Shown: in pieces, positions 3,179 through 54,543 of the stretch | Position numbering within the stretch: the first letter of the stretch is position 1 | How the letters are laid out: each line of letters begins with the position of its first letter | Source: a virus | Virus record (IMG/VR): IMGVR_UViG_3300035156_000198 | Coordinates: 9,513-73,512 of that record | Length of the DNA stretch: 64,000 nucleotides | Direction: 5' to 3' (one strand) | Notes under the pieces: generated by a model | What the model saw: only the letters and a program-made list of their open reading frames with translations | Databases searched by the model: none | Told to the model about the DNA's origin: nothing | Made by a program: the position numbers and the translations under genes

Positions 3179-3184
3179 GTGTCT

Positions 3185-3787: not shown

Positions 3788-3789
3788 CC

Positions 3790-24510: not shown

Positions 24511-24648
24511 GTGCCGACACCGATCCCCGAGCTTGACGCCTACGACGACATCGACCCCGATGTCGACTCACTGGTGGGCGAGCCGGCCGACGCCGACCAC
24601 GACCTCGACCCGGACACCTTCACCGAGGAAGAGGACGACACCCCGTGA
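24511..24648 (+). CDS. 45-aa very acidic peptide (not in ORF track)
   Basis: GGAGG RBS, GTG start, stop overlaps the endolysin start (GTGA); 18 D/E and no K/R. Confidence 0.6.
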   Translation: MPTPIPELDAYDDIDPDVDSLVGEPADADHDLDPDTFTEEEDDTP

Positions 24649-25367: not shown

Positions 25368-25645
25368 TGCCCGCGCACCGCTACGACCAGGGCGGCGACG
25401 GGCTGCCGCGGCCGTCGCCGGAGTCGACCAGCTCGGGCGCCGACGTGGTGGCCCGCGAGCCGGTGCGCACCTACCTGTACGCCGTCGGGGTCGCCTGCCT
25501 GCTGGTGCTCAACGGCTACGGCATCGTCGCCGACGAGCGAACCGCACTCTGGGGCAACCTGCTGGCCGTCGTGTTCGTCCCAGCCGTCGAGGCTGCACGC
25601 GCCCGCGTGACGCCTGTCCGTAAGCACAGAAGGAGCACCCCGTGA
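25367..25645 (+). CDS. Holin
   Basis: REPVRTYLYAVGVACLLVLNGYGIV...LWGNLLAVVF; two TM segments; coupled to the endolysin. Confidence 0.75.
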   Translation: MPAHRYDQGGDGLPRPSPESTSSGADVVAREPVRTYLYAVGVACLLVLNGYGIVADERTALWGNLLAVVFVPAVEAARARVTPVRKHRRSTP

Positions 25646-29900: not shown

Positions 29901-31926
29901 GAGCATCACCGCCACCGGCCTGACCCTCACCGCGTCGTTCGACACGTACCGATTCGGCCTGATGACCTCCCTGGCCAACTGGGGGCCGGTGTGGATTGAC
30001 GACCTCGGGGTGAACCTCACCGACTGGTGCGGCCCGGCGGTCGCCACCGGCCCGCCGGGCCCGGTGACAGTCGACGCTGACATCACCGACCTGGCACCGG
30101 CCGCCGACACCACCGCCGCGGCGGTCACGACGGCGCGAGCTGCAGCTGACACCGCGCCGGCTGCCGACACCACCGCGGCCGCGGTGACCCGCGTCCTGGC
30201 CGCGACGGTCGCCGACCCCGCTCCCGCCGTGGACGCTGCCACCCGGGTCACCACCCGAGCAAGGGCCGCCACCGACGCCACAGGAGGCGCTGACAGCGTC
30301 GCAGCGGCGTCGGCGAGGGTCAGGGCGGTCAGCGACTCCGCGGCCGGGAGCGACGCGCTGGTGGCTTCCAGTGGCCGCACACGCGCCGCCGGCGACACCG
30401 CACCGGCCGTCGACCAGCTCACCCGCGCCGAGACCCGGGCCCGCGCCGCGGTCGACACCGCGGCCGCCGCTGACCAGCTGACCCGGGCCCGGGCTGGAGC
30501 TCGGGCGGTCACCGACGCGGCCGCCGCCGGCGACGCCCTCACCACCAGGTCGGCGCGAGCCCGTACCCTCACCGACGCGGCGGGCGCCGGCGACACCACC
30601 GCATCGTCGTCGGCGCACGTCCTGACCGCGGCCGCAGCTGACACCGCGCCGGCAGCTGACACCACGACCGCCCGAGCGGCCCGCGTGCGAGCTGCAGCCG
30701 ACACCGCCGCCGCTGCCGACACCACCACCAGGGGCACGACCCGGGCCCGAGCTGCCGGCGACACCGCGCCGGCGGCTGACTCGGCCACCAGGGGAGCGGC
30801 CGCCGCCCGCCCGACCACCGACACCGCCCCGACCGTCGACACCCTGACGACCAGGGCCACCCGGGCCCGGGCCCTCACCGACACCGCGCCGGCGGGCGAC
30901 ATCACCGCCGCCGGCGCGGCCCACCAGCTCGCCGCCACGACCACCGACACCGCGGCCGCCGTCGACCAGCTGGCCCGCACCGTGGCACGGACCCGGACGG
31001 CAGGCGACACCGCCCCGACCGTCGACACCACCGCGCGGGCCGGTTCTCGAGCCCGGGCCTCCATCGACGCCGCGCCGGCAGCTGATGCCGCCGCGCAGAC
31101 CTCTACGCACGTCCTGGCCCGGGCGGCCAGCGATACCGCCGCCGCCGTCGACCAGCCGGCCAGGGCGACCAGCTCGGCGCGAGCTGCAGCCGACACGGCG
31201 CCGGCGGGCGACCAGACGGCCAGGGCGACGACCCGCGCGCGAGCCGTGGGCGACACCGCGCCGGCAGCTGACACGACCGCCCAAACCTCCGCGCACGTCC
31301 TCACCAGGGCCACCAGCGACGCCGCGGCGGCCGCCGATGCCACCGCCCGGGCCACCAGCCGCGCGCGAGCTGTCACCGACGTATCGGCTGTGACCGATAC
31401 GCCGACCAGGGCCACCACCCGCGGCCGCGCGACCCTCGACGCCGCTGCAGCTGCCGACCAGCTGGCCGTCGCCGTCGCGCAGGCGCTGGCCGCGGCCGCC
31501 GCCGACACGGCACCGGCGACCGATGTCACCAGCCGCCGGGTCATGCGGGCCCGCACACCGACCGACACCGCACCAGCGGTCGACGTGACGACCAGGGCCA
31601 CCACCGCCGGCAGCCTGGTCACCGACGCCGCACCGCTGGCCGACCTGGTGACGCGAGCCGCGGCGACCGCACGGGCCCAGCTCGACACCGCCCTGGCCGT
31701 CGACCTGGCCGGCGCCGTGGTCGAGGTCTACGTGCCGCCGGTGTTCATCGTCACCCGGCCTGGCCTGACCGTGACCGCGCGAGCTGGCGGCCTGACCGTC
31801 ACCGCCCGAGCTGGCGGGCTGCAGCTGGTCGGCAACGGCGCCGGCCTGGTCATCGAGCAACCGGCGGCCGGCCTGGCCGTCACCGGCCACCGCACCGACG
31901 CGGGCATGGTGCCCGCCGACGCCTGA
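26944..31926 (+). CDS. Giant fibre/adhesin with GH16 glycoside hydrolase, lectin-like domains and ~20-aa repeats
   Basis: GH16 motifs FFDDF, NNELQTY, YTSGRI, GLWPAFW, catalytic EIDILE, DFHVYAVEW, ILNLAVGG; long RxRxxxDxAxAxD repeat tract. Confidence 0.85.
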   Translation: MPVIRYTDYLGVTRNRLPTSPTALHSPRTGSREIDGGPGNPVLFADDFNRPDQALNANGNWINASAGTPMSIIGGQLVGGTTASPAFRWAAPTASDDQFSEVQWLGGSFNGPNVQMSSYAANAGASTVPPFYVFRWNSATNVGLGYKTAGSSTYTALTSATYTLTPGDLMRLEYVGGILRCYVNDVLLITHDPVALRITGQRHVGIGVNTGSASGLTLFDNWRGGDAAAYVPAVLPTAYVATTSDAAPAADTASAAVTPATPPSTVVFFDDFTGPAGTAPSAASWSYDIGDLGVNNELQTYTSSAANVATDGAGNLAIVARSDGAGGYTSGRIHAIGKVAQQFGRIEARIKVPKGTGLWPAFWAMSDPAVYGAWPRNGEIDILESVNAMLTDTTSLHGPMTAAPGTPWHLNRTWTPGLDLSADFHVYAVEWQTNLIAFYLDGGLAHVLTPADMPAGATWPFNDKPFSPILNLAVGGDFPGQTVDPAALPATMLVDYVRITTPPTGGFTAARPKVSTLVTAFTDQREFEGWWAAAALAGGALVLQVNNQYGGILRSERRFDLTSSQMSAQLVAPPNVGAGTTETQFQALANPSNYVDFGWVNGTLYCREVVNGASDATYPGYTPAQDKFLRMRHDGTNLIWETSPDGVTGWVTRRSKVPVVPLTNLGVQLVAGYYGTETAPGTATWDDLNTTAAAPAQLARAAADTASAADATTRATTRTRATGDAAAAADQLTRAATRARATLDTAPAADTVATSAVPALAQLTRSTTDTAAASDALTAARDAARATVDTATAADTATAEVTPAATGPAITAGNGFEGLADGTTITPANSGGASGTAFDAATIPSSGQTIAVSAARAAHGTRSLQIGTGATATTSNLSWMAAVGARTTFYLRWYAYFTALPASSSTLWRGLLGGTTGMGINLSSAGALRAQDAAGASSTATTVPGSIPLNQWFRVEARVVAGTGGTGTIEIRRYDTADAPVGSPSASITATGLTLTASFDTYRFGLMTSLANWGPVWIDDLGVNLTDWCGPAVATGPPGPVTVDADITDLAPAADTTAAAVTTARAAADTAPAADTTAAAVTRVLAATVADPAPAVDAATRVTTRARAATDATGGADSVAAASARVRAVSDSAAGSDALVASSGRTRAAGDTAPAVDQLTRAETRARAAVDTAAAADQLTRARAGARAVTDAAAAGDALTTRSARARTLTDAAGAGDTTASSSAHVLTAAAADTAPAADTTTARAARVRAAADTAAAADTTTRGTTRARAAGDTAPAADSATRGAAAARPTTDTAPTVDTLTTRATRARALTDTAPAGDITAAGAAHQLAATTTDTAAAVDQLARTVARTRTAGDTAPTVDTTARAGSRARASIDAAPAADAAAQTSTHVLARAASDTAAAVDQPARATSSARAAADTAPAGDQTARATTRARAVGDTAPAADTTAQTSAHVLTRATSDAAAAADATARATSRARAVTDVSAVTDTPTRATTRGRATLDAAAAADQLAVAVAQALAAAAADTAPATDVTSRRVMRARTPTDTAPAVDVTTRATTAGSLVTDAAPLADLVTRAAATARAQLDTALAVDLAGAVVEVYVPPVFIVTRPGLTVTARAGGLTVTARAGGLQLVGNGAGLVIEQPAAGLAVTGHRTDAGMVPADA

Positions 31927-32252: not shown

Positions 32253-32353
32253 TACGTGCCTGTGAGGGCCTTGGCCAGCAGCCACACCGACCAGATGATG
32301 AAGTAGACGACCAGCGCGGCCAGGATGCACGACACCCACGCTTTCGGGGTCAC
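32249..32353 (-). CDS. 34-aa single-TM peptide
   Basis: WVSCILAALVVYFIIWSVWLLAK; GTG start next to the upstream stop. Confidence 0.5.
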   Translation of the reverse strand: MTPKAWVSCILAALVVYFIIWSVWLLAKALTGTY

Positions 32354-32652
32354 GATGGCACCGGCTGCTCGGTGACGATGCCGAGCCGCTCGGCGGCCTG
32401 CAGCAGCGGCACCTGGTGGCGGTAGCTGTCCCAGAAACCGCGGCAGATGGCCCGCGGCTGCTCGGCTGACATTAGGGTGGCATGGCAGGTCAGGCCGGCG
32501 CCGGCGGCGACGTTGCGCCGCACCAGGTCGGCGAGCCGCCCGGGCTGCAGGTCCATCCGGTTGCCCGGGTGGAACACGCACGTCGGGCACTTCTCGGTGA
32601 GCACGTGCACCCGGCCGTCGCGGTACACCGGGCGAGCTGCTCGGCGGGTCAC
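32350..32652 (-). CDS. Hypothetical Cys-containing protein
   Basis: KCPTCVF...TCH...CRGF; GTGA coupling. Confidence 0.6.
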   Translation of the reverse strand: MTRRAARPVYRDGRVHVLTEKCPTCVFHPGNRMDLQPGRLADLVRRNVAAGAGLTCHATLMSAEQPRAICRGFWDSYRHQVPLLQAAERLGIVTEQPVPS

Positions 32653-32963
32653 GTGACGGGCCGTAGCGGGATGACCGGTGCCGGCTCGACCGGGGTGGTG
32701 TCGAGCGACTGGACGACCGGGGACACGACATGCTGCCAAGCGGCGTCGTTCCCCTCGGCCTCGGTGAGCCCGTCGAAGCTGAACACGATGACGCGGCGAC
32801 CGAACATGGCGACCTCTCGCCGGTAGTACAGCGCGTGCGGCGGCGCCACCCGCTCGGTGTCGTGCACCGGCGGCAACGGTTCGGCGACCTCGACGGCGAC
32901 CACTCCGGGGTCCACGTCGAACACCTGGCCGTCGGCGGGGCCGCCGAGGAACAGGGCCCTCAC
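32649..32963 (-). CDS. Hypothetical protein
   Basis: LFLGGPADG start motif common in actinophage small proteins; coupled. Confidence 0.6.
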   Translation of the reverse strand: MRALFLGGPADGQVFDVDPGVVAVEVAEPLPPVHDTERVAPPHALYYRREVAMFGRRVIVFSFDGLTEAEGNDAAWQHVVSPVVQSLDTTPVEPAPVIPLRPVT

Positions 32964-33781
32964 GCGCCGGCCCCCGTGACCCCGGCGGCGAAGGCGCCGG
33001 CGACGATGCCCAGCGTGCGAATGACGCCGGCGGCGAACGTGGCCAGGCCGGCCGGGTCGAGCACACCCCACACCGTCAAGGCCATGACCGGCAGCCACCG
33101 CAGCGTGAACGACGCGAACATCAGCACGTCGTCGCCGTCGAGGCCGCTGGCGGCCCACTTGCGGCGCACGCCGCGCACCATGGCGGCGACGCCCTTGGCG
33201 ACGACCCACAGCAGCGTCACCGGGAAGATGAGCACGGCCGGCAGGCGTAGGTCGCCGATCCGGTCGAGCCGCCCGCGCCGGTTGTAGCCGCTCACCGGGG
33301 CCGGCCCCAACCATGCCGGCCGACCGCCCGGCTCGGCGGTGCGGTCGATGCTGTGCGCGCCCGGCACGTACGCGCCGCGGTACAGCAGCCGCCCGTCGGC
33401 GTCGCGCAGCTCGTACTCGGCGCGCGGCGTCGAGCCGCCGTGGTCGATGACCTGGCGCTCGCTGATCGTGTAGCCGTCGGGCAGCTTGCGGGTCAGCGGC
33501 ACGGGCCGGTGCGGCGCCATCGACGCCGGCGGCTCGAAGTCGGCTGGCAGCTGGGCCGAGCACTCGGGGTTCAGGCACAAGTGCGCGACGACCTCGCCGG
33601 CGGGGACCGCCGCGGTCGGCCTCACGCGCACCGGGTCGACCTTGGTGTGCTCACATTGGACCCTCTGGACCGGCGTCACCTTGCGGCGGGTGAAGCGGTA
33701 CAGCGGCGGGGCCGCGAGCATCATGCCGCAGCCGAGCAACGCCGCGGCGGCGTACAGGACGAGCTGCAGGTACTCAGTCAT
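32960..33781 (-). CDS. Membrane protein
   Basis: N-terminal and C-terminal hydrophobic segments; RBS GAAAGG. Confidence 0.65.
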   Translation of the reverse strand: MTEYLQLVLYAAAALLGCGMMLAAPPLYRFTRRKVTPVQRVQCEHTKVDPVRVRPTAAVPAGEVVAHLCLNPECSAQLPADFEPPASMAPHRPVPLTRKLPDGYTISERQVIDHGGSTPRAEYELRDADGRLLYRGAYVPGAHSIDRTAEPGGRPAWLGPAPVSGYNRRGRLDRIGDLRLPAVLIFPVTLLWVVAKGVAAMVRGVRRKWAASGLDGDDVLMFASFTLRWLPVMALTVWGVLDPAGLATFAAGVIRTLGIVAGAFAAGVTGAGA

Positions 33782-33826
33782 CGGGGGCCTTTCGGGTGGG
33801 TGGTGGTGGTGGTGGTGAGGCCATTG

Positions 33827-34030
33827 TCAGGGTCGGGGCCCTCGATTCAGGATCAACAGGCTGGCGCCGGCCGCGGCGAACGTGAACCCGACGACCTCGA
33901 CCAGCAACCCGACGCCGACCAGCACGAACACGTGGTCGTCGCGGTCGCTGGCGACGCCGGCCCAGTACGCGCCGGCGCTGCCGACGACCAGGCCCACCAG
34001 GGCGACGACCGCGCCGACCAGCCGGTTCAC
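33827..34030 (-). CDS. Small two-TM membrane protein
   Basis: Two hydrophobic helices; GTGA coupling. Confidence 0.6.
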   Translation of the reverse strand: MNRLVGAVVALVGLVVGSAGAYWAGVASDRDDHVFVLVGVGLLVEVVGFTFAAAGASLLILNRGPRP

Positions 34031-34344
34031 GGCTGCCGCCCGCACAACGGGCACGAGTCGCCGTCGGGCACGGTGACGGTGCCCATGCCCGGGCAATCGT
34101 GGGCGACGTGCGGCCCGTTGCAGATCGACGCCGGGCACCCGTCGGGGTCGCACCAGTCGAGCAGCTCGGCGGTCAGCGCGATGGCGCCGTCGGGCTGCAG
34201 CTCGGCGGCGACAACCTCGGCGGCGACCGGCCCCGGCGCACCGGGCACCGTCATGGTCGGGGTCTGCCCCACCAGGCCGGCGGCCGCCGACGGCGCGAAC
34301 ACGTCGCCTGGTGTCTCGGGGTACATCCTGAACTCAACCCGCAT
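34027..34344 (-). CDS. Hypothetical protein
   Basis: 105 aa with RBS GAAGGGAG; Cys-rich C-terminus. Confidence 0.55.
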   Translation of the reverse strand: MRVEFRMYPETPGDVFAPSAAAGLVGQTPTMTVPGAPGPVAAEVVAAELQPDGAIALTAELLDWCDPDGCPASICNGPHVAHDCPGMGTVTVPDGDSCPLCGRQP

Positions 34345-35023
34345 CCCGGGCTCCCTTCGTGGTGGTGGCCGTGGCGCGGTGCTCGACGGCGCGCACCGTC
34401 GCCGCGTACCACTTCCGGCCGCCCTGCCCGGTCGGCACGGCGCCGGCGTTCAGATCGTTGGCGATGGCCTGGTATGACTTCCCGGCGGCGCGGGCCTCGA
34501 TGATGCCGGCGCGCACCGTCTCCGGGACGGTGATCGACCGGCCCAGCGCGACGCCCTGTTTCTGCAGCTCGCCGAGGGCGGCCTTCGTGCGCTCGCCGAT
34601 GATGCGCCGCTCCCATTGGGCGAACACCGCCATGACGCCGGCGAGCACTTCCCCGGCGGGGCTGGTCAGGTCCACGCCCAGGTCGAGGGCCACCAGGTTC
34701 CACCCGCCCTCCCTGGCCTCGGCGGTGATCGTGGCGAAGTCCAGCAGCGACCGGGAGAGCCGGTCGAGCTTGGCGACCATCAGGGTGCCGGCGTCGCCGT
34801 CGCGCACCAGGTCGAGCGCGTCGGCGAGCTGGGGCCGGCGGGCCCGAGACTTCCCCGACGCGACATCGACACGCACGGGCTCGAGAAGCCGCCAACCGCG
34901 GCGGTCGCACTCGGCCCGGATGGTGGCCTCCTGCGCGGCGAGCCCTAGCCCGCGTTCGCCTTGTTCGTCGGTGCTGACCCTGATGTACCCGACGACGACC
35001 TCGGGGCCGACGCGGCCGGTCAC
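34334..35023 (-). CDS. Small serine recombinase (resolvase/invertase family)
   Basis: GYIRVSTDEQ (catalytic Ser), SGKSRARRPQL, VAKLDRLSRS, AQWERRIIGERTKAAL, then a short HTH-like region; about 229 aa. Confidence 0.9.
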   Translation of the reverse strand: MTGRVGPEVVVGYIRVSTDEQGERGLGLAAQEATIRAECDRRGWRLLEPVRVDVASGKSRARRPQLADALDLVRDGDAGTLMVAKLDRLSRSLLDFATITAEAREGGWNLVALDLGVDLTSPAGEVLAGVMAVFAQWERRIIGERTKAALGELQKQGVALGRSITVPETVRAGIIEARAAGKSYQAIANDLNAGAVPTGQGGRKWYAATVRAVEHRATATTTKGARDAG

Positions 35024-35235
35024 AGTCGGACCTCGTAGACCTCGGCCACGGCGCCGTCGTCGCGGACCTCGAACCGGCCCGACGGCACGGCGACGGCCCC
35101 GTCGAGCGGGATCGGCTCGCCGGGCCGAATGGTTGTGAGGTCGTACCACCGGCCCTCGACCTCGGGGGGCAGGAAATCGGCGGGCAGGTCAGCGGCCGCC
35201 CGAATCACCGCGTGGTCGGCGTGATCGGCGGTCAC
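35020..35235 (-). CDS. Hypothetical protein
   Basis: Coupled 4-bp overlaps. Confidence 0.55.
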   Translation of the reverse strand: MTADHADHAVIRAAADLPADFLPPEVEGRWYDLTTIRPGEPIPLDGAVAVPSGRFEVRDDGAVAEVYEVRL

Positions 35236-35444
35236 GGCCGCCGCCACACTCTGACGCACGCGCACGGCCGAGCGACCACGACCGTCGGCGGCCGGTGCCA
35301 CTCGGTGCAAGGCCCGAGCGGGTGCCACGGGTGACCGCAACCGCAGACCGCCGGGGCCTTCGGGTCGACCACGTAGACGATGACGCCCGGCGCGCGGCCG
35401 GCCCGGGCGATGGCCCGCCATAGCTCGACCTGGCGCGGCGTCAC
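35232..35444 (-). CDS. Hypothetical Cys/His-rich protein
   Basis: CGCGHPWH...C...CAC; coupled. Confidence 0.5.
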   Translation of the reverse strand: MTPRQVELWRAIARAGRAPGVIVYVVDPKAPAVCGCGHPWHPLGPCTEWHRPPTVVVARPCACVRVWRRP

Positions 35445-35683
35445 TGGTCGACCGCCGGGTTCTCGCCCTGGTCGACCCGGCCGATGTCGGTGCGCGACCG
35501 CAACGCGCGCAGCTCCATGTCGCGGCTCACCTTGTCGGCGTGCACGGTGGCGATGGCGAGGTCCCCTTCCAGCTCACCGGGCCGACCTCGGTTCGGCAGG
35601 CCGGGCCGCGACGCGCGACCGCCGGGCCCGTAGTACGCCTCGACCCAGTACGGCCGGGTCCGGTCGGGCACCCGGCGGCTCAC
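35441..35683 (-). CDS. Hypothetical protein
   Basis: GTG start overlapping the upstream stop. Confidence 0.5.
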   Translation of the reverse strand: MSRRVPDRTRPYWVEAYYGPGGRASRPGLPNRGRPGELEGDLAIATVHADKVSRDMELRALRSRTDIGRVDQGENPAVDQ

Positions 35684-35880
35684 CGTCGCACCCCCCGGGC
35701 CCGCAACAGCTCGGTCTGGTCGAACATGCCGTGCACGACGGTCCACCCGGTGATGCGTGCACCGTCACGCTCGGCCCAGTGGCGAACCTCGGCCATCCTT
35801 CGCCGGCACACGGCGAGCCGCATGGCCAGGGGCGCGGTGTCAGGGGCGAGGAACGCCTGACCTGTCCACTGATCGGTCAC
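35680..35880 (-). CDS. Hypothetical protein
   Basis: 66 aa, coupled. Confidence 0.5.
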   Translation of the reverse strand: MTDQWTGQAFLAPDTAPLAMRLAVCRRRMAEVRHWAERDGARITGWTVVHGMFDQTELLRARGVRR

Positions 35881-36242
35881 GGCCGAAGCTCGGAGAGGGT
35901 GAGGGTGACCAACCCGTCGACCGGCTCGGCCTCGATGACGCGGAACACGCCGGCGCCGTACACCGTGACGGCCTCATCGCCTGGCACGGCGACCAGCCGC
36001 ACGATGTCGCCCACGTCGGGCGCCGCCGACACATCCCGACGCGGCGGGGTCCAGTGGTCGTCGGTGGGCGAGTCGAGCAGCGGGCCCTTCTTGCCGCCGG
36101 CGAAGTCGGACCCGCGGAAATCGTGCGGGGTCGCCGAGAAGTGCCGCAGCTTGGCGCGCTCGGCGGGTGACAAGTCAGGCGCCGGCAGACGCTTGTCGGT
36201 GCGGCGGTCGGTGAACGGCACGAACGGGTCGGTGGTGGTCAC
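35877..36242 (-). CDS. Hypothetical protein
   Basis: RBS GAAAGGA; coupled. Confidence 0.55.
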   Translation of the reverse strand: MTTTDPFVPFTDRRTDKRLPAPDLSPAERAKLRHFSATPHDFRGSDFAGGKKGPLLDSPTDDHWTPPRRDVSAAPDVGDIVRLVAVPGDEAVTVYGAGVFRVIEAEPVDGLVTLTLSELRP

Positions 36243-36397
36243 AGTGGGTCCTTTCGGCAGCGGCGGCAGTAGCGGTGCGAAGCGGTGACACGGAACGCGA
36301 GCGACCCGGCGATGGTGCTGCCACCGAAGGGCTCGACGGCATCGAACACGAGCACCGGGCGGTGACCGCGCACCCGGCACACCAGCCGGCGGATCAC
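36239..36397 (-). CDS. Small Cys/His protein
   Basis: LVCRVRGH...YCRRC; coupled. Confidence 0.5.
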   Translation of the reverse strand: MIRRLVCRVRGHRPVLVFDAVEPFGGSTIAGSLAFRVTASHRYCRRCRKDPL

Positions 36398-37161
36398 CAC
36401 GGGCTCGGGTCGCGCGGCTCGACGGTGAGGGCCGGCACGACCAGCTGGTGCTGGTCGTCCACGTCGTCGGTGTGCCGGTAGCCGCCCTCGTAGCGGTGGC
36501 GGCCGCACTGGCGGCAGCTCGGCTCGGCGCCGTAGCCAACGGGGTCGACCTGGAAGGTGTGCGGCTCATCGTCGGCGGCGGCGTCGTCCGGCTGGGCGCC
36601 GAGGTCATCGCCGAGCGCGGCGCGCAGCACCGGGGTCGGGACAGCTGACGCCCATTCGGGTGTCTCGACCAGCGCGCGCACCCGGGCGAGTTGGGCGGCC
36701 GGCGAGGTTGGGTCGGCCGGCCCGGCGACATGGCCGGGCCACCCGGGGGCATCGACCCGGAACGACCCGACCAGGTGGCCGTGGCATGGCGGGTCGGTGT
36801 CGGGGTCATGGGCCCGCTCGCACGTCACGGCGGCGCCGTCGGCGTCGAGCCACTGCCGGCCACACAGGACCTCGGCGTCGGGGTCGGCGGCGACCTCGGC
36901 GAGCCGGCGGCATAGGGCCTCGACCACCCGGGCGAGGCCCATGGTGTTCGCGTCGGCCTCGGCGAGCCACCGGGCCAGGTTGGGGCCGGTGACCGGCTGA
37001 CCCTCTCGGGTGTCGGTGTCCCATCGGGCACTCTCGGCGACCAGCGCGGCGCGGCTTTCCAGGTCGGCGAGTGAGGCACCGTCGAAGGGGGCCTCTGACG
37101 GGCCCTCTCCGGGCCTGTCGAGGGTTGGGGGTTCTGATCGGCTGACGGGCTCCATCGGCAT
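36394..37161 (-). CDS. Hypothetical protein (first gene of the leftward accessory operon)
   Basis: 255 aa; RBS AAGGA. Confidence 0.6.
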   Translation of the reverse strand: MPMEPVSRSEPPTLDRPGEGPSEAPFDGASLADLESRAALVAESARWDTDTREGQPVTGPNLARWLAEADANTMGLARVVEALCRRLAEVAADPDAEVLCGRQWLDADGAAVTCERAHDPDTDPPCHGHLVGSFRVDAPGWPGHVAGPADPTSPAAQLARVRALVETPEWASAVPTPVLRAALGDDLGAQPDDAAADDEPHTFQVDPVGYGAEPSCRQCGRHRYEGGYRHTDDVDDQHQLVVPALTVEPRDPSPW

Positions 37162-38680: not shown

Positions 38681-38761
38681 GTCGTCGTAACGCAAGGTGC
38701 CCCCGTCGCCGCGGCCGATAGCCGCTGCTTGTGTGCGGCCACTGGGCGGACAGTGGCCCCC

Positions 38762-39325
38762 ATGCCCGCCGTCGAGGTCACCGAGAAGCACGTCGACCAG
38801 GTGACCGCCATCGCGCGCCGGGTCGGCGAGCTGCCCGCCTGCCGACTGGCCGGCGGGGTCGATGAAGCGATCTCCCAGGCCTACGTCGTGCTGTGGGACC
38901 TCGCCCTGAGCTGGGACCCCGACCGTGGTGTCCCGTTCGAGGTCTACGTGTCCATGCACACCCGGCACCGGCTGCTGGACTGGGTGCGCCGCGAGGTCGG
39001 CCGCGCCGGCACCCCCCGGTTGAAGATCATCGCCGAGTCGGCGTGGTTCGAGGCCGTCGACCCCTACGACCCGGAGCGGGACATCGAGCTGGGCGCCGGC
39101 CCGGAGATGACCGCGTTCGCCCGCGAGACTCTCGCCGAGGTCGTCGGCGCCGCGAACGGCAACCTCTCGCGCCGGCAACGCGACGTACTGTTCGCCGAGC
39201 TGGAAGCCGCCGGCGGCATCGCCGAGGTCGCCGACGACTGGGGCATGTCGACGGCCACGGCGATGACTCACCGCTCCCAGGCCCGCCGGCGGCTACGTGA
39301 GGCCCTCACCCGCGGCCCACCCTGA
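38762..39325 (+). CDS. Phage-encoded sigma-70 family sigma factor (regions 2 and 4)
   Basis: DEAISQAYVVLWDLALSWDPDRGVPFEVYVSMHTRHRLLDWVRRE (region 2); LSRRQRDVL...IAEVADDWGMSTATAMTHRSQARRRLREAL (region 4). Start uncertain (38729 or 38762). Confidence 0.75.
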   Translation: MPAVEVTEKHVDQVTAIARRVGELPACRLAGGVDEAISQAYVVLWDLALSWDPDRGVPFEVYVSMHTRHRLLDWVRREVGRAGTPRLKIIAESAWFEAVDPYDPERDIELGAGPEMTAFARETLAEVVGAANGNLSRRQRDVLFAELEAAGGIAEVADDWGMSTATAMTHRSQARRRLREALTRGPP

Positions 39326-39338
39326 CCGGCGAAACGGT

Positions 39339-39355
39339 GTCAACGGAGCGTTGAC
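39339..39355. promoter_or_regulatory. GTCAA-N7-TTGAC palindromic operator, copy 4 of 5
   Basis: GTCAAcggagcgTTGAC between convergent genes. Confidence 0.55.
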
Positions 39356-39388
39356 AGCGGATCGGCGGTCACCGGTGAGCCCGGGCGA

Positions 39389-39634
39389 TCACCCGTCCGT
39401 GACCGGTGAGGCCGTAGGAGGGGCGATAGACGAACGTGCAACCATCGCCGCGTGCCGGGCCTGATGCTCGGCCAGCGCGATGTCGTCGGGCTTGGCGTTC
39501 CAGTCATCGAGGAACGCGCGCAACACCTCCGAGAGCCCGTCGGCGATGCGCAACCGCTGCGCCTTGTCGATGGCCGGCGACCATAGGTAGCCCTCCGCGC
39601 GGAACTGGCGGTGCCTGGTGCCGGTCTGACTCAT
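39389..39634 (-). CDS. Putative ribbon-helix-helix DNA-binding protein
   Basis: TRHRQFRAEGYLWSPAIDKA...LSEVLRAFLDDW (beta-helix-helix pattern). Confidence 0.55.
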   Translation of the reverse strand: MSQTGTRHRQFRAEGYLWSPAIDKAQRLRIADGLSEVLRAFLDDWNAKPDDIALAEHQARHAAMVARSSIAPPTASPVTDG

Positions 39635-42027
39635 GGCCGGAATCCTCCCATGATCGTGTCGTCGGCGGCGGCTGCACGAGTCACGACGATGGGATGGTCG
39701 GTGGCGGCGTCGACCTGGCGGCTGTCATCGACCACCGTCCTCGAGAAACGGGTGCCCGGCGAGCCGGTGATCCAGTCGATACCGCGGTACGCCCAGCTGG
39801 TCGCCGACACCATGCCGGCAGCTCGGGCGCGGCGGCCGAACTCGGCCTTCTCGTTCATGTCGCCGACCAGGTACACCGGGTCGCCGTAGCCGGCGAGCTG
39901 ACGCACCGCCCGGAGCTCGATGGCCAGGGCCTCACGCCGCCACCGGTCCTGGTTCCCTCGGTGGGTTTTGCTCGACGGGTTGTGCACCGAGAGGAACCAC
40001 GACGCCCGGCCTGCCCGGTCGACCAGCCGCACCGCCGGCATGTCGCGGCCGTGCCCACCGAAGTACGGCACCCGCACCAGCCTGGTCGCCACCCCGTCGG
40101 CGAGGGTGAACGCCGCCCGTCGCCACGCGACCTGATTGTCACCGCTCCCCCACCTGGCGAACGCGCCGCCGGTGAGCTTGTCGAACGCCCGCACCTGGCG
40201 GCCTTGCGCTTCCTGCAGGCCGATCACGTCGACCCGGTGCCGGGCGATCACGTCGACGGCGTGCACGATGCGCCGGTCAGCTGACGCCGCGCCGGTGTGC
40301 GAGGCGCCGCGAATGTTGAAGGTGGCCAGGGCGAACGAGTCGCCGCCGGCGATGGTCGACCACGACGCCGGCAACGTGCCGACGCTGCTGGCGCGGCCGA
40401 CCTTGCGGGCGAGCCACCTGGTCGGGTCCACCCCGTCGGCGTAGATGCTGCCGTTGCGCGGGTGAACCTCGAAGTGCAGATGGCACCCGGTGGCGTTCCC
40501 CTCGGCGCCGACCTCGCCGAGCTGCTGCCCGGCGCGCACCGTCTGCCCGTCGGTCACGTCGAGGGCTTGCATGTGGGCGTACCACGTGGTCAGCGACGCC
40601 GGCCCTGTCTCGACCTTCACCAGCCACCGGCCCGCCCAGCTCGCCGACGTGTCGACCCGCACGGTGCCGGCCGTGGCGGCGACCACCGGGGTGCCGCATG
40701 ACGCCGAGAAGTCGGTGCCGGTGTGCTCACGTGCCCACCGTGACCCCGACCGGCCGTAGTTGCGTCGGTCGGTGGCAGCCACCGGCGCGACCACCGAGAG
40801 CGACCCGCCGCTGCTGCAGCTGGGCGCCGGCGCCGCGGCGCGCGGCGCCTGGTCGTGGAAGTCGATGTGCACGTGGTCGTAGTGCGGTGACCCGCCGGGC
40901 GGCACGTCGTAGTCGTGCAGGCCGCGGCCGCGGTTGAAGATCCGCATGCTGTAGATCACGTTGTCGGCGCCGCTGGTGGTGTAGCCCGGCCCCGCGAAGT
41001 AGTCGAAGATGGCGCGGCCCTGGTCGGCGTCGGTGGGGAACACGTCGATGGCGAGCCCGTCGGCATGCTTGGACCGGCGGCCGGTGCTGCCGATGTTCCG
41101 GTCGGCGTACCCGTCGATGCGCACGTCGCCCCAACGTGACCGCACCAGGTCAGCGGCGGCGGCCGCCACAGGCCGGAGGCCGTTCGGTGTCGAGCTGGTC
41201 GCCGACGCCGGGGTGACGGTGCCGGCGGGGTCGCCGGCGACGGTGAGCCGGTCGATGGCTGCGCGGGCCTCGGCTAGATGCGCCCGGTAGTCACCGTTGC
41301 GCCATGTCGTCCACGGGTCCCAACCCTCGGCGGTCCAGAGCTTGTGCGCGGCGGCCGCGTTGTCGCCCAGGTCGTCCCACCTGGTGCCAGGTGGGAACAG
41401 GCCGGCGTGCATCGGCAGCATCATCTGCATCAGGCCCGACGCGCCGGATGGGTTGCGGGCCCGACGCTTGTAGCGGGACTCCGCGCCGCCGATGGCCAGG
41501 GCGGTCACCGCGTCATCGCCGGCCCACCCGGCCCGGAGGATGGCGCGAGCTGCCGGGTCGATGCCGTCGGCGTCGGCGGCAGCTGCAGCGGGCAAGACCG
41601 TGGTCGGGCACGGGTCGCACGCGCCGGCCGGCAGCACACCAGGCGCCGGGTCGGGCTCGGGCTCGACCGGTGCGGCGGCACCCTTCGCTGCAGCGGTGAA
41701 CACCCCGACCAGGCGGCCGGCCTCGCGGTAGCCGTCGTTCACCGCGCGGGTCACCCCGGCCACCGACGGCGGCCCAGCCTCAAGGTCACGGAACACCGCG
41801 CCGGCCTTCGCCGCGACACCGGTGGCGCCGCCGGCCGGCTTCCCGTCGGGTGCAGCCTGAGACACCCCGCCGGCGCTGCAGCTGATGAACGGCACCCCGT
41901 CGAGGTCGCCGTCGTAGAACTGCGGCAGCACCATCAGCAGCATCCCGCCGGCGATGAGCAGCCGAGCCCACATCGGTGTGCTGGTCTTGCGCACCACGAT
42001 GGTGCGCGTCACCACCCGGTCAGGCAT
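39631..42027 (-). CDS. Membrane-anchored multidomain wall hydrolase: SLT + M15-like + M23 + EEP domain
   Basis: N-terminal TM; AIGGAESRY...GASGLMQM (SLT); SKHADGLAID...HYDHVHID; HTGTDF, WYAHM, HLHFEV (M23); TFNIRG, IGLQE, GDMNE, IDWI, TDHPIV (EEP). Start placed at 42027. Confidence 0.82.
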   Translation of the reverse strand: MPDRVVTRTIVVRKTSTPMWARLLIAGGMLLMVLPQFYDGDLDGVPFISCSAGGVSQAAPDGKPAGGATGVAAKAGAVFRDLEAGPPSVAGVTRAVNDGYREAGRLVGVFTAAAKGAAAPVEPEPDPAPGVLPAGACDPCPTTVLPAAAAADADGIDPAARAILRAGWAGDDAVTALAIGGAESRYKRRARNPSGASGLMQMMLPMHAGLFPPGTRWDDLGDNAAAAHKLWTAEGWDPWTTWRNGDYRAHLAEARAAIDRLTVAGDPAGTVTPASATSSTPNGLRPVAAAAADLVRSRWGDVRIDGYADRNIGSTGRRSKHADGLAIDVFPTDADQGRAIFDYFAGPGYTTSGADNVIYSMRIFNRGRGLHDYDVPPGGSPHYDHVHIDFHDQAPRAAAPAPSCSSGGSLSVVAPVAATDRRNYGRSGSRWAREHTGTDFSASCGTPVVAATAGTVRVDTSASWAGRWLVKVETGPASLTTWYAHMQALDVTDGQTVRAGQQLGEVGAEGNATGCHLHFEVHPRNGSIYADGVDPTRWLARKVGRASSVGTLPASWSTIAGGDSFALATFNIRGASHTGAASADRRIVHAVDVIARHRVDVIGLQEAQGRQVRAFDKLTGGAFARWGSGDNQVAWRRAAFTLADGVATRLVRVPYFGGHGRDMPAVRLVDRAGRASWFLSVHNPSSKTHRGNQDRWRREALAIELRAVRQLAGYGDPVYLVGDMNEKAEFGRRARAAGMVSATSWAYRGIDWITGSPGTRFSRTVVDDSRQVDAATDHPIVVTRAAAADDTIMGGFRP

Positions 42028-43852
42028 CGAGCTTCTCGCGGGACTCCTCGGCCTCGGCCTGCCGGCGGCGGCGAGCTGCCGGCAGCTCGATGCGCCGGTG
42101 GGCGTTGCGGCCGTTGTGGACCTTGTTGTAGATCGGGTTCTCCGTCTCGATGGCCCGCTTCTCGGCGGCCTCGGCGAGCTTGCGGGTGTCGAACCATTCG
42201 ACGGTGCGCTGCACGTCGCCCTCCATGAACTCGCGGAGCGCGGCGGTGTGCTGGGACTCGCGGCGCAGAATGTCGAAGCTGATGCCGATGTAGCCCGGCC
42301 GGTCGACCTCGGGGTTCGCGTCGGCGTGGAACCAGCGGTACAGGGCGGTGCGCCTCGGCGCGGTGTCACGCACGGCCCGCTCGGAGCGGGCGTCGGTGGC
42401 TTCCTGGTGTGCGCGCTCGACGTTGCGCGGCAGCTCGCCGCGGGCGATGAGCTTCACTTCGGCGTCGGTGACCTCCGCGGCCCGGAACTTCGCCGGCCGG
42501 CGCTCACCCTCGGCGTCTGACCAGCCGACGCCGGGCTCCTGGACCTCTGAGCACAGGGCGCCCTTGGATTCGGCGTACCCGCCGAGCACCGCGTCGGTGG
42601 TCTGCGGCGCGTCGGTCGCCACGCAAATGCGCTGCGGGATGAACGACCTGACCCGGCCGAGCACGTCGAGCTGGGCGGCCTGAGTGTTCATCCACACCAC
42701 GTACCAAGCCGCGGCGCCCATGTAGGCGATGCGGCCCAGCGGGCTGTCCTGGCCCTTGGTCAAGATGGCCTGGAGCGCGACGGTCTCATCGAGCAGCACC
42801 ACCACGAGCGGGTACTTCTCCGAGGCCTTCTCGAGCTTGCGCACCCCGTCGAGCTTCATGTGATGCTTGCGGGCCTTCATCGCCTTCTCGGCGTGGCCGA
42901 TCATCTCGATGGTGGCCGCCACCGTCGGCGCGTACTCCCGAACCGTGATGAGCCGGTGCAGCGGCAGGACGTTGCCCTTGGCCGCCTCGGCCTCACGCAT
43001 CGCCCGCTCGAACTCCTGCAGCTCCAACCCTTCCTTGGGGTCGCTGACGTAAATCTCGACGGGCAACCCCTGCCGGATGCAATCGGCGAGCAGGGCCCAG
43101 CAGATGTTCGACTTCCCCATGCGGGTCAGGCCGCCGATCAGCACCGACTGGTTCGCGATGATGGTGGCCGGTGTGCCGTCCTGCCTGATGCCGTAGGCCA
43201 GGCGCGTGTCGCCCCTGGACCCGAGCGACGCCGGCGGCATGGCGGCCAGCGGCAGCACCCGTCCGATCGGGTCACGGAAGTGGAACGCGAACCTCCCGAC
43301 GCCCGAGCCCGTCGGCGTGACGGTGACCTCGGCGCACCCGATGACTTCCTTCAGGAACTCGGTCTTGGCCTGGAACTTGAATACCGGGACGCCGACCTCG
43401 CCGCACCTGACCTCGGCCGTGAATGACCCGTGGCCGTTCCCTCGCAACCGGCGCAACGCGGGAGGGCCGGTCCGCTTGGCTGTCAGCTCGGCCGCCTCGC
43501 ATGCCAGCGGCCACTGAGCCCGGATCACGTGCTTCTGCTGGGCGTCTTCCCATAGCTCCCGCGGGGTGGGCGCGGCGCCTTCGGCGCCGCGACACCGCCA
43601 CGCTACCCATGCTGTCAACCCCATGACCACCAGAACCGCGGCCCGGATGACCGCCCCCTGAAAGCCGAACCGGCTCCACGCCCACAGGAACGCGACCGTC
43701 ACCGCGGTCACCCGGTAGTGACGGATGCACCACCGGGCCAGGCGGCCGGTGTGGTACATCCCGAACGGCATCGGGAACTCATCTACCAGGCGTGTGCCCG
43801 AGCCGAAGGTTCGGTGCCTGATGTTCCTCACGGTGTCAGGTCGACGGGACAT
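42020..43852 (-). CDS. FtsK/SpoIIIE (TraB-like) DNA translocase fused to a GIY-YIG nuclease domain
   Basis: N-terminal TM segments; Walker A VLIGGLTRMGKSN; Walker B VVLLDET; FIPQRIC; C-terminal TALYRWF...GYIGIS...RRESQH...AEAAEKRAIETENPIYN. Confidence 0.82.
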   Translation of the reverse strand: MSRRPDTVRNIRHRTFGSGTRLVDEFPMPFGMYHTGRLARWCIRHYRVTAVTVAFLWAWSRFGFQGAVIRAAVLVVMGLTAWVAWRCRGAEGAAPTPRELWEDAQQKHVIRAQWPLACEAAELTAKRTGPPALRRLRGNGHGSFTAEVRCGEVGVPVFKFQAKTEFLKEVIGCAEVTVTPTGSGVGRFAFHFRDPIGRVLPLAAMPPASLGSRGDTRLAYGIRQDGTPATIIANQSVLIGGLTRMGKSNICWALLADCIRQGLPVEIYVSDPKEGLELQEFERAMREAEAAKGNVLPLHRLITVREYAPTVAATIEMIGHAEKAMKARKHHMKLDGVRKLEKASEKYPLVVVLLDETVALQAILTKGQDSPLGRIAYMGAAAWYVVWMNTQAAQLDVLGRVRSFIPQRICVATDAPQTTDAVLGGYAESKGALCSEVQEPGVGWSDAEGERRPAKFRAAEVTDAEVKLIARGELPRNVERAHQEATDARSERAVRDTAPRRTALYRWFHADANPEVDRPGYIGISFDILRRESQHTAALREFMEGDVQRTVEWFDTRKLAEAAEKRAIETENPIYNKVHNGRNAHRRIELPAARRRRQAEAEESREKLDA

Positions 43853-43918
43853 GCGCGCTCACCTTCGGGGCTGGGACGGTCGGGTGGGGGGTGTGGGGGG
43901 AGGGGTCGAGCCGGCCGG

Positions 43919-44050
43919 TCATCGCTGGCAGCCGTGGCCCCATGCGCACAGGTAGCGGCGCCGGAAGATGCCTTGCACGGTGTTCGTGGTGCGGCGCTTG
44001 CACGCCCAGCAGTAGCCGCGGCGGGTGCGCTTGGTGGTGGTAGTGGCCAT
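43919..44050 (-). CDS. 43-aa Zn-ribbon peptide
   Basis: YCWACKRRT...YLCAWGH. Confidence 0.5.
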   Translation of the reverse strand: MATTTTKRTRRGYCWACKRRTTNTVQGIFRRRYLCAWGHGCQR

Positions 44051-44055
44051 GCCGG

Positions 44056-44433
44056 TCAGGCCCAGCCGCCGAGGCTGTAGGTGGGCGCCTTCTTCTTCGC
44101 CGGTGCGCGCTTGGCGGCCGGCTTCCTGGTGGTCGGCTTCCTGGCGGCGGGCGGCTTCTTGCCCTTGCGGGCCCGGTCGGCGGCGATGCGCGCGGCGTGG
44201 GCCTTGGTGACGGTGCCCTTCGGTGTGCGGCACGGCTGGTAGGGCCGAGCGTGGCACGTGGTGCACCGGTTGGGTCGGCGGCTGTCAAGCCCGAGCTTGA
44301 ACGCCTTGCCGCCGGCTCGGGCCTTGCGTGCGCCGGCGCGGGCCTTGCGTGCGCCCTTGGCTGCGCCGAACAGCGGCGAGGTCACCAGGCCGCGTTTCCC
44401 GAACAGGGTGAACGTCTGGCCCTTGCGTGCCAT
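44056..44433 (-). CDS. Basic protein with zinc finger and K/A/P-rich tail
   Basis: CTTCHARPYQPCRT...AHAARI; KKPPAARKPTTRKPAAKRAPAKK. Confidence 0.65.
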   Translation of the reverse strand: MARKGQTFTLFGKRGLVTSPLFGAAKGARKARAGARKARAGGKAFKLGLDSRRPNRCTTCHARPYQPCRTPKGTVTKAHAARIAADRARKGKKPPAARKPTTRKPAAKRAPAKKKAPTYSLGGWA

Positions 44434-44762
44434 CAGCGGCCGCCGGCGATCACGCCGCCGCGGGGTGCGGCCTGGCGCTGCTGGCTCCGGGGTGCCGGCC
44501 TGGCCGCCGCCCCCCGGTTGGAGCCGCCGCCTCGGTTGGCGGTCGGCTTCTGCGCCATGCCGCTGCGGTCGGCGGCGGTGCGGGCTGCCTGGAACCCGCT
44601 GGTGGCCTCATCGAACCCGCCGAGCACGGCGCCGGCGGTGATGCCGATGGTGCCCATGCTGTTCCCTGCGATCCTGGCGGCCGCCGGGGCCCCCGCGACG
44701 AGGCCGACGGCGGCCACGATCCCGAGTAGCCACGTGACGACGACCGCTGCTGCGTGCTGCAT
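44433..44762 (-). CDS. Small membrane protein (Spd-like position)
   Basis: Hydrophobic N-terminus; first gene of the FtsK operon; RBS GGGAG. Confidence 0.6.
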   Translation of the reverse strand: MQHAAAVVVTWLLGIVAAVGLVAGAPAAARIAGNSMGTIGITAGAVLGGFDEATSGFQAARTAADRSGMAQKPTANRGGGSNRGAAARPAPRSQQRQAAPRGGVIAGGR

Positions 44763-44796
44763 TCGCGTCTCCCTGGAGTGGTGTCGAGCGCACGGG

Positions 44797-44886
44797 CTGT
44801 CCGTACGCCTGTCCGCACGGTAGCACCGGTCTAGGCCACCTGTCCGTGGGTCGATGGTTGCGGGGGCTGGACAAAGGGGCTACGTT
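44797..44886. promoter_or_regulatory. Divergent control region: CTGTCCG direct repeats, CGGTCTAGGCCA box, TTGCGG-N17-TACGTT promoter
   Basis: Repeats at 44797, 44809 and 44840; box at 44827-44838; -35 at 44858, -10 at 44881. Confidence 0.55.
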
Positions 44887-44935
44887 TGGGCACCATGAGG
44901 CACCAGGAGCAACCAACAGGCATCAGGAGGAACCA

Positions 44936-45181
44936 GTGACGGCCACAGATGACACGCCCGACGCCGGCGGCGATGGCGCCATGATGACCAGCACCCAAGC
45001 CGCCGAGCAGCTCGGCGTGTCGGTGATGACGCTGCGCCGGTACGTCGAGGCCGGCGAGCTGCGCGCGTCACGCATCGGCCCGAAGAAGCTGATCCGCATC
45101 CGGCCGGCCGACCTGGCCGCCTACGTCGAGGCGAACCAGACCCCGACACCGGCCGCGCCGGCCTCGCCGGCCTCGGCCTGA
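44936..45181 (+). CDS. Excisionase-like (MerR-type) HTH protein
   Basis: MMTSTQAAEQLGVSVMTLRRYVEAGELRASRIGPKKLIRIRPADL; AGGAGG RBS before the GTG at 44936. Confidence 0.85.
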   Translation: MTATDDTPDAGGDGAMMTSTQAAEQLGVSVMTLRRYVEAGELRASRIGPKKLIRIRPADLAAYVEANQTPTPAAPASPASA

Positions 45182-54189: not shown

Positions 54190-54543
54190 GGGTCTGGGAC
54201 ATCGAGCGCGACTGTGGTCACACCACCCGGCACGACCACGTGCCGACGGTGCCTGACTACCCGTGCCCGTCCGGTTGCGTCGAGGACGAGCTGCCCGTGC
54301 AGCTGCTGGTTCAAGCCCGAGCCCGACCCCGACCCCGAGCCGGCACCGGAGCTGCCGGCCGTCGACCCCGAGCCGACGACGCCACCGCCGGCCAAGGTCG
54401 AGCGGGCCCCCGTGCGACCCGCGGCCCGCCGCCCGCCCCCGACACCGCCGCGCGGCCGCGCACCCGCCGGCCCGCTGACCCGAGTCGACCCCGAAGCCCT
54501 GGCGGCCTTCAACCGCGGCACCGAGCGAGCCCGCCGTGACTGA
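54186..54543 (+). CDS. Hypothetical protein, reading frame ambiguous
   Basis: The 54186 frame looks coding at the 5' end and the 54214 frame at the 3' end. Confidence 0.3.

Follow-up and report, generated by a model that had tools for sequence, protein, structure and literature searches.

The stretch of DNA analysed here (the window; 64,000 nt) comprises bases 9513-73512 of a linear virus record of 74,174 bp in IMG/VR (IMGVR_UViG_3300035156_000198), with a CheckV completeness of 86%. Genes were called by frame analysis of the GC content at third codon positions (GC3), and the products were scanned with PHROG and Pfam. On the minus strand, at window positions 39389-44762, we found an operon of five genes, A-B-C-D-E, all of them supported by the GC3 frame analysis, which encodes among others an FtsK/Tra-like ATPase fused to a nuclease (gene C) and a membrane-anchored wall hydrolase with four enzyme domains (gene D). 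The operon is divergent from a helix-turn-helix (HTH) gene of the HTH_17 type. The features of the locus, in window coordinates, are as follows.

44936-45181, plus strand: HTH_17 gene (MerR/excisionase-type; PF12728, E 1.4e-12; phrog_66).
44433-44762, minus strand: gene A, first gene of the operon, a small membrane protein of 109 aa with an N-terminal transmembrane (TM) helix at aa 4-22 and a Gly-rich segment.
44056-44433, minus strand: gene B, 125 aa, very basic (35 Lys + Arg against 2 Asp + Glu), with a possible zinc-binding motif.
43919-44050, minus strand: possible 43-aa mini-ORF with four cysteines (Cys4; CxxC...Cx5C) between gene B and the ATPase gene, GC3 0.86-0.90 in the matching phase.
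42020-43852, minus strand: gene C, 610 aa, FtsK/Tra-like ATPase fused to a C-terminal GIY-YIG nuclease.
43592-43717, minus strand: aa 46-87 of C, a long hydrophobic helical hairpin serving as membrane anchor (hydropathy peaks at aa 62-87; one helix, 46-87, in the structure model).
42383-43555, minus strand: aa ~100-490 of C, FtsK-type motor made up of a pre-motor domain and a RecA-like core (Walker A GKS, 246-248; Walker B DE, 355-356).
42098-42361, minus strand: aa ~498-585 of C, GIY-YIG nuclease domain, followed by a short helix.
39631-42027, minus strand: gene D, 798 aa, membrane-anchored (TM at aa 18-37), with four enzyme domains.
41305-41538, minus strand: aa 164-241 of D, SLT/SLT_3 lytic transglycosylase with the 'ES' catalytic motif (Pfam).
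40849-41157, minus strand: aa ~291-393 of D, LAS/M15-like metallopeptidase region, with the motifs Hx6D ... HxH readable in the translation.
40453-40728, minus strand: aa 434-525 of D, M23 (LytM-type) endopeptidase with HxxxD and HxH present (Pfam, 2e-24).
39694-40326, minus strand: aa 568-778 of D, endonuclease/exonuclease/phosphatase (EEP) domain (Exo_endo_phos, 1.5e-14).
39389-39634, minus strand: gene E, 81 aa, coupled to D.

Stop and start codons overlap by 1 nt between A and B, by 8 nt between C and D and by 4 nt (ATGA) between D and E, and the genes therefore form a single translationally coupled operon. A preliminary description of this DNA had named the leftward genes and the divergent HTH gene, and all of them were recovered where it had placed them. 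Its identification of gene E as a ribbon-helix-helix (RHH) protein could not be confirmed, as E has no match in Pfam or PHROG even at E ≤ 1 and the RHH assignment thus has no HMM support. It had mentioned neither the GIY-YIG end of the ATPase nor the four enzyme domains of the hydrolase.

Gene C matches phrog_1358 at 1e-18, and endonuclease PHROGs match its residues 504-587. When 20 family members were scanned, all carried PF01580 and 18 carried PF01541 (GIY-YIG; best E 4e-9). The complete GIY-YIG active-site set is present in the window protein, namely Y505 of the GIY motif, Y521 and G523 of the YIG motif, R531, H535, E564 and N576. An alignment of 55 diverse members, which are 25-56% identical to the window protein, showed that G246, K247, D355, E356, Q391, R402, Y505, Y521, G523, R531, H535 and N576 are invariant, and that E564 is retained in at least 90%. 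The invariance of the Walker A/B and GIY-YIG residues means that motor and nuclease are both under strong selection, and judging from its active site the GIY-YIG domain is apparently catalytically active.

The AlphaFold (AF2) model of gene C had a pLDDT of 81. Foldseek matched the model to TcpA (pCW3), the FtsK motor, TraSA (pSAM2) and Tra (pIJ101), and more weakly to EccC/EssC; TraSA was covered end to end (TM-score by hit, 0.63). The family profile matches FtsK in the PDB at E 1e-9. The top PDB match was TcpA of the Clostridium perfringens plasmid pCW3 (PDB 6o1w; E 2e-16), which the family profile also matches by sequence (E 3e-5); TcpA, however, shares only 13-14% identity, acts in the multi-protein Tcp apparatus and has no nuclease. 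Gene C is predicted to encode a membrane-anchored dsDNA motor of the hexameric FtsK/Tra-like type.

The window protein belongs to a large family. A word-indexed search returned 27 relatives of gene C, and an exhaustive profile search returned 409 representatives at E ≤ 1e-30, the top 150 of which were all below 1e-70. When clustered at 50% identity, the family amounts to no fewer than 150 clusters, almost all of them metagenomic, and every member that we looked up was metagenomic and lay on a phage-like contig (up to 84 kb). The C-terminal GIY-YIG domain was found in 158 of 174 family proteins and in 0 of the plasmid Tra or FtsK references. A tblastn search of INPHARED with gene C gave no match, GTDB representative genomes gave only a marginal match of 54 residues, and pattern scans of IMG/VR for the family found nothing. 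The literature searched held nothing relevant on an FtsK-GIY-YIG phage protein and no description of the present family and architecture (Tra-like motor, GIY-YIG nuclease and conjugation-type wall hydrolase); the family is distinct, widespread and as yet undescribed, and the architecture is new.

To place the motor, we compared it with proteins of plasmids and chromosomes. The sole plasmid matches of gene C were FtsK/SpoIIIE proteins of actinomycete elements (25-28% identity). The best of them lies on pMR2 of Micromonospora rosaria, which bears int, xis, rep and tra, and a further one, on an M. avium plasmid, has genes for a replication initiator and a recombinase as its neighbours. The family motor profile scored 82-134 bits on plasmid Tra proteins, 25-65 on FtsK and 18-65 on two TraB-like proteins of Streptomyces plasmids. 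In a maximum-likelihood tree of 31 motor domains, with EccC left out and the root arbitrary, the phage family formed one clade (98/98) that was sister to the Tra clade of plasmids and of the integrative and conjugative elements of actinomycetes (AICEs) (92/87; the Tra clade itself, 99/96), and FtsK formed a separate clade (100/99). This bears out the kinship with plasmid transfer ATPases proposed in the preliminary description, and supports a motor closer to the FtsK-like Tra proteins of actinomycete integrative or conjugative plasmids than to chromosomal FtsK.

The Tra proteins of actinomycete plasmids (pMR2, TraSA of pSAM2, and those of Gordonia, M. avium, Pseudonocardia and Streptosporangium) share with gene C the N-terminal membrane region, the pre-motor domain and the FtsK-type motor. 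In contrast to gene C, they end after the motor or bear a DNA-reading tail, and a GIY-YIG domain is found in none of them. Their neighbours are rep, int, xis, DUF2637 and regulator genes, whereas the neighbour of gene C is a wall hydrolase gene. The phage family is a clade apart from plasmid Tra and was found only in phage-like contigs.

Gene D also resembles plasmid proteins. Its SLT, M23 and EEP domains were recognised by Pfam, and its LAS/M15-like region gave sub-threshold matches only (Extensin-like_C 0.004, Peptidase_M15_4 0.03, VanY 0.19). Residues 284-788 share 35-37% identity with proteins encoded in type IV secretion system (T4SS) clusters of the Nocardioides plasmid pCHL and of Pimelobacter plasmids. 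The homologous ORF of pCHL spans 1039 aa and combines an M23 domain with two stretches of EEP; it is flanked on one side by genes for a VirB4-like ATPase and the SCO6880 family and on the other by a gene for TraM recognition (VirD4-type). On the conjugative plasmid pTC1, an 879-aa protein with EEP, SLT and CHAP domains adjoins traG. Phage database matches to D, on the other hand, cover the M23 domain only, and the matched proteins are endolysins. These results indicate that gene D is probably a conjugation-type rather than an endolysin-type hydrolase. The hydrolases of the actinobacterial T4SS clusters (pCHL, Pimelobacter, Paenarthrobacter pTC1) are likewise large, combine EEP with M23, SLT or CHAP domains and stand beside DNA-transfer ATPases; they are partnered by ATPases of the VirB4-like and VirD4/TraG-like kinds and by a VirB6-like protein, whereas the partner of D is a Tra/FtsK-like pump-nuclease. 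PrgK, CwlT and TcpG of Firmicutes are functional analogues among the wall hydrolases of conjugation clusters. As an aside, the 1039-aa frame of pCHL (L015, 10477-13596) is listed in the gene table of the plasmid only by its last 170 codons.

The small genes differ in their conservation. Sequence relatives of gene A lie directly upstream of the ATPase gene in six related loci (L002, L004, L005, L011, L012 and L014), and similar TM/Gly-rich proteins occur in further ones. Gene A has no Pfam or PHROG match; its nearest neighbours by language-model features are TrbL/TraJ (VirB6-type) fragments (score 0.91), which we regard as a lead only. Gene B reached Phage_zn_bind_8 below the threshold (E 4.5e-5; 23.5 bits against a cut-off of 24), and it had no tblastn match in the related loci and is not conserved. 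A candidate identity for B, the 'RRQRL zinc-binding protein' encoded upstream of a Streptomyces plasmid TraB, was rejected because no similarity was found. Gene E likewise has no relative in the related loci.

We then turned to related loci that are readable downstream of the ATPase gene, 18 in number. The next gene encodes a peptidoglycan hydrolase in 13 of the 18 and usually overlaps the ATPase stop codon. Among the downstream proteins, SLT_3/SLT domains occur eleven times (including L039), M23 and EEP domains four times each, NlpC/P60 three times and VanY once; an SLT domain homologous to that of D is present in 10 of 19 downstream proteins, and EEP is joined to wall-hydrolase domains also in L005, L012 and L029. 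Since non-homologous catalytic types occupy the same position, the association probably reflects a functional requirement and not just inheritance. In locus L022 (8001-10922; P0040) the two proteins are fused into one ORF of 973 aa, in which motor and GIY-YIG domain are followed by a TM segment (595-615) and then SLT/VldE; the TM segment between nuclease and SLT gives the topology expected for a pump inside and a hydrolase outside the cell. This fusion comes from a single assembly, in which a frameshift error is possible. The relative in L039, which has no GIY-YIG domain, keeps its partner (SLT and VanY) in the same position.

The placement of the module is also conserved. In all loci the late (tail/lysis) genes end on one side of it and the early HTH/recombination genes lie on the other. 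A tyrosine integrase gene belongs to the same leftward operon as the module in L002 and L022, and in L039 the module is co-directional with its neighbours. The conserved core consists of three genes, A, C and D, and excludes B and E.

According to the published criteria, an AICE has integrase/excisionase genes and a RepSA/RepAM-type initiator next to tra, with Spd/DUF2637, GntR Kor and Nudix Pif proteins (PMC2440964). Among the scanned neighbours of the operon we found no replication initiator, and neither the operon nor its flanks gave a Pfam match for Spd/DUF2637, GntR Kor or Nudix. Features of the TraB class are present in gene C (FtsK/SpoIIIE motor with Walker A/B, N-terminal membrane association, grouping with Tra), and likeness to T4SS clusters is limited to D and, weakly, to A. 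The preliminary description had spoken of a plasmid/AICE-like transfer module; its Tra-type ATPase and plasmid-type hydrolase remain, but the Rep, Spd/DUF2637, GntR Kor, Nudix and integrase components of such elements are lacking. On gene content, the module does not appear to be an inserted AICE.

Three known systems are closest in design. In Streptomyces plasmids such as pSVH1, the C-terminal winged helix of TraB reads clt, and TraB and the Spd proteins bind peptidoglycan (PMC4447253). The phage module resembles this TraB-clt-Spd system in having a single membrane-associated FtsK-like dsDNA pump, a small membrane protein and wall involvement; it differs in that the clt-reading domain, SpdB2 and the GntR-type TraR are missing, no 8-bp array was found, and a nuclease and an enzymatic hydrolase are added. 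SLP2 of Streptomyces lividans offers a parallel in gene order, with co-transcribed genes for a membrane protein (spdB2-like), a TraB-like ATPase and a lytic transglycosylase/C40 hydrolase. The co-transcribed genes SLP2.19-23 are required for transfer (PMC2782261), and are taken to include these three. SLP2, however, has no GIY-YIG domain and is a plasmid, not a phage. Pairwise homology was sought and rejected: the similarity of C to the SLP2 TraB was limited to the P-loop and that of D to the transglycosylase/C40 protein to the SLT motif, neither of them significant, so that the parallel is one of gene order and function only.

The third system is pZL12/phiZL12, a Streptomyces plasmid-phage with a relative, pSLE1. 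Its tailed-phage genome is reported to carry tra, and tra and adjacent genes to be needed for conjugal transfer (PMC3583192, PMC4487206); pZL12 is the experimental precedent for a phage-conjugative hybrid. No similarity to the module was found among the phage and plasmid records searched, none of which gave a close match to the ATPase.

From these results, our preferred reading, to which we give a probability of about 0.42, is that the operon is a phage-borne module of conjugative ancestry for the translocation of DNA across the envelope. We infer from its domains that the module may move DNA through both membrane and wall. That it actually transfers DNA from cell to cell is a serious possibility, at something short of even odds. 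Cell-to-cell or cross-wall transfer is favoured because this reading uses all three conserved parts, and it is consistent with two precedents, SLP2 and pZL12. In the proposed mechanism, D would open the wall locally, and A together with the TM hairpin of C would form or support a passage through the membrane. The motor would pump dsDNA through this passage, as TraB does, and the cargo would most likely be the genome of the phage itself, delivered into an adjacent cell or compartment of the hypha. Standing in place of the clt-reading winged helix of TraB, the GIY-YIG domain might introduce a cut or nick in the substrate, creating an end for entry or freeing a unit length, and the YqaJ/RecT pair of the phage could re-circularise the DNA in the recipient.

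Several results weigh against this reading. An invariant, apparently active nuclease on a DNA pump fits destruction of DNA at least as well as its delivery, and the nuclease is the unexplained element of the module, which could be an end-maker for translocation or part of an exclusion weapon. The clt-reading winged HTH (wHTH) domain at the C-terminus of TraB is absent from C, where GIY-YIG takes its place, and no convincing clt-like array of 8-bp repeats was found at 39-46 kb; the only nearby 8-mer cluster, four copies of TCGCCGAG at 39030-39226, is internal to a sigma-like gene, where it mirrors a recurring pattern of Ala-Glu codons. By Pfam, the operon is without VirB4, VirD4 and relaxase genes as well as those for Spd/DUF2637 and GntR Kor. 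Five of the 18 related loci have no adjacent hydrolase gene, and close relatives were found in no isolate genome and in no cultured phage. The sister relation to AICE Tra is moderately supported (92/87) in a tree without EccC, in which the two Streptomyces TraB references sit on long branches elsewhere. Finally, the likeness of gene A to TrbL comes from language-model features alone, at a score reached by chance 4-10% of the time.

A bolder extension, which we consider doubtful, is that the members of one large clade of uncultured actinophages pass their genomes, with no need of virions, between cells or through hyphal cross-walls, by a self-contained three-protein, nuclease-primed dsDNA conjugation native to phages. 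The GIY-YIG domain would then make the DNA end, for which plasmid TraB systems have no known need. As an idea, the phage-conjugative hybrid is known already; phage-plasmid hybrids capable of both packaging and conjugation are known from a single studied case in Streptomyces, pZL12. If the module does move phage DNA between cells, views of how actinophages spread in soil mycelia and of their host range would change, and a minimal, testable apparatus for dsDNA transfer would be at hand. If it destroys incoming DNA instead, it would represent a new membrane-based exclusion system. Either outcome could be reached by ordinary genetics in a Streptomyces or Micromonospora model.

Such a device for exclusion or competition is the alternative that survives best, although we think it unlikely. 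The pump-nuclease would capture incoming or resident foreign dsDNA at the envelope and shred it, either as a prophage defence or as a weapon against rivals. As the GIY-YIG catalytic residues are invariant in the family, DNA cutting would be central to function. The module lies in a region where temperate actinophages keep lysogeny and moron genes, and the operon that it shares with a tyrosine integrase gene in L002 and L022 is divergent from an HTH_17 early gene. Pairs of a HerA/FtsK-superfamily ATPase and a nuclease also occur in defence, and SIR2-HerA and HerA-NurA were among the weaker fold matches. A known anti-phage defence system was rejected, since PADLOC 2.0 recognised none; it returned only mad8 (E 4e-4, in the P-loop region) and nothing for A, B, D and E. 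A conserved, outward-facing wall hydrolase, once even fused to the pump, is not expected of a defence that destroys DNA in the cytoplasm. Moreover, the nearest relatives of C and D are conjugation proteins, and members without the GIY-YIG domain retain the hydrolase partner. Translocation of conjugative ancestry remains the reading that we prefer over exclusion.

The same genes could serve in lysis or host takeover, with D as a SAR-type or auxiliary endolysin, the ATPase-nuclease degrading the host chromosome and their adjacency reflecting expression timing rather than a shared channel. We regard this as quite improbable. D does contain three wall-hydrolase domains that are plausible as catalysts, one of which, M23, has matches among actinophage endolysins, and no endolysin recognisable by Pfam stands beside the holin gene in the window; of the relatives that lack an adjacent hydrolase, the most distant has a GH25 endolysin among its late-operon genes. 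The operon, however, runs opposite to the holin and late genes and is 14 kb from the holin, and the record has other lysin candidates, a PG_binding-like protein of 240 aa encoded beside the holin gene and a GH25 gene outside the window. Related phages carry Amidase_2, GH25, VldE or PG_binding_1 genes in addition to the module. The combination of EEP with hydrolase domains is typical of plasmid conjugation clusters, and no phage record matches beyond M23. On these grounds (strand, distance, other candidates, plasmid-type architecture) we rejected D as the endolysin of the phage as a main reading, and a membrane anchor on an enzyme that degrades host DNA would be left unexplained.

Very improbable, in our view, is a segregation device, in which an FtsK/SpoIIIE-like pump clears or delivers a possibly extrachromosomal prophage across division or sporulation septa and the hydrolase remodels the septal wall. 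The motor has a fold equal to that of FtsK/SpoIIIE, and a common supposition about ftsK-like actinophage genes is that they influence the development of the host (PMC10117723, PMC13587820). The whole 74-kb record has no tyrosine integrase (PF00589) and, by way of recombinases, only a serine recombinase of 229 aa, so a plasmid-like prophage is conceivable. Against this, relatives with integrases bear the same module, the genes scanned include no ParA/ParB or replication initiator, and C has no FtsK gamma/wHTH domain. Its motor groups with Tra and not with FtsK, and a nuclease fused to the pump would endanger the cargo.

An artefact, whether a chimera of the assembly or the chance insertion of a piece of an AICE or plasmid in this one contig, is hardly credible. 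The record does come from a metagenome assembly and lacks terminal repeats, but GC and GC3 are unchanged at the operon borders and homologues of both flanks accompany the module in independent assemblies (RecT, YqaJ, a 151-aa gene and HTH_17 in L002; an 82-aa gene in L005), which makes a chimeric join very unlikely. The module also recurs in 18 phage-like loci from different samples and is accompanied by no Rep, Int or Spd genes.

The genome around the operon is that of a siphovirus, and GC is ~72% across the whole window. TerS, TerL, portal, protease, major capsid protein, tape measure, tail and holin genes were all found by PHROG/Pfam in a late block on the plus strand. The preliminary description had called the element a complete tailed phage; the late gene set is indeed full, whereas the record, at 86%, linear and without terminal repeats, falls short of complete. 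TerL is closest to that of Streptomyces phage Chymera (52%) and those of cluster-E-like mycobacteriophages (47%). The host is therefore probably an actinomycete of high GC. Further features of the window to the left of the divergent HTH_17 gene are listed below.

3326, plus strand: TerS.
3790, plus strand: TerL.
6328, plus strand: portal.
8360, plus strand: protease.
9248, plus strand: major head protein.
15013, plus strand: tape measure protein, 1321 aa, with an M23 domain; tail proteins follow up to 24084.
24645-25367, plus strand: 240-aa protein, whose stop overlaps the holin start.
25367-25645, plus strand: holin.
26944-31926, plus strand: 1660-aa protein downstream of the holin, with a GH16 (glucanase/lectin-like) domain and internal short repeats.
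32350-36942: leftward block that contains the serine recombinase.
34334-35023, minus strand: serine recombinase, 229 aa, 7 kb from gene C, with a resolvase domain and a mere fragment of a 'Recombinase' domain.
38729-39325, plus strand: sigma-70-region-2 protein, 198 aa, with a region-4-like C-terminus; it ends a short rightward block and is convergent with the operon.
39306-39388: imperfect 40-nt inverted repeat (70% complementary, 3-nt loop) between the operon and the sigma-like gene, where the two converge.
44763-44935: intergenic region from which gene A and the HTH_17 gene diverge.
44889-44936: about five imperfect copies of the 10-nt unit GGCAYCAGGA, just upstream of the HTH_17 gene.

The 240-aa protein next to the holin had no Pfam match even at E ≤ 1. 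Language-model features place it with viral PG_binding_1/M15_4/VldE proteins, and it is likely an endolysin of an unrecognised type. The 1660-aa GH16 protein is probably a tail fibre or depolymerase. For the serine recombinase we considered a large serine integrase broken by frameshifts and rejected it, as the resolvase domain is followed by no more than 39 positions of the Recombinase domain, and a look for other pieces found none.

On the right of the operon, the HTH_17 gene opens a long rightward early block that continues into a YqaJ-like exonuclease and RecT and is syntenic with L002. Its start is uncertain (44846, 44936 or 44981), with the GTG at 44936, preceded by AGGAGG, as the likely one. 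The GGCAYCAGGA copies may be operator or leader repeats, and no sigma-70 consensus promoter was found in the divergent intergenic region. On the left, the inverted repeat is a probable bidirectional terminator, and the four TCGCCGAG copies in the 3' part of the sigma-like gene fall within 190 bp.

Some further observations concern the rest of the record and related contigs. A 290-aa protein (61166-62038, plus strand) has a sub-threshold match to the Tet/JBP 2OG-Fe dioxygenases, which hints at DNA base modification. A tRNA-Pro(CGG) gene (54319-54403, minus strand) is set among early genes of the other strand. Outside the window, at 2631-4318 of the record (locus L017), a gene for a caspase-like Peptidase_C14 protein stands immediately before one for a GH25 muramidase. 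A DUF932 protein is encoded at 126-1148 of the window (minus strand; E 8e-52), and the same family occurs near the module in the related contigs L012 and L021. The contig with the fused ORF, L022 (further region listed, 12617-14257), also encodes a Ro60/TROVE-vWA protein and an Lsr2-like protein.

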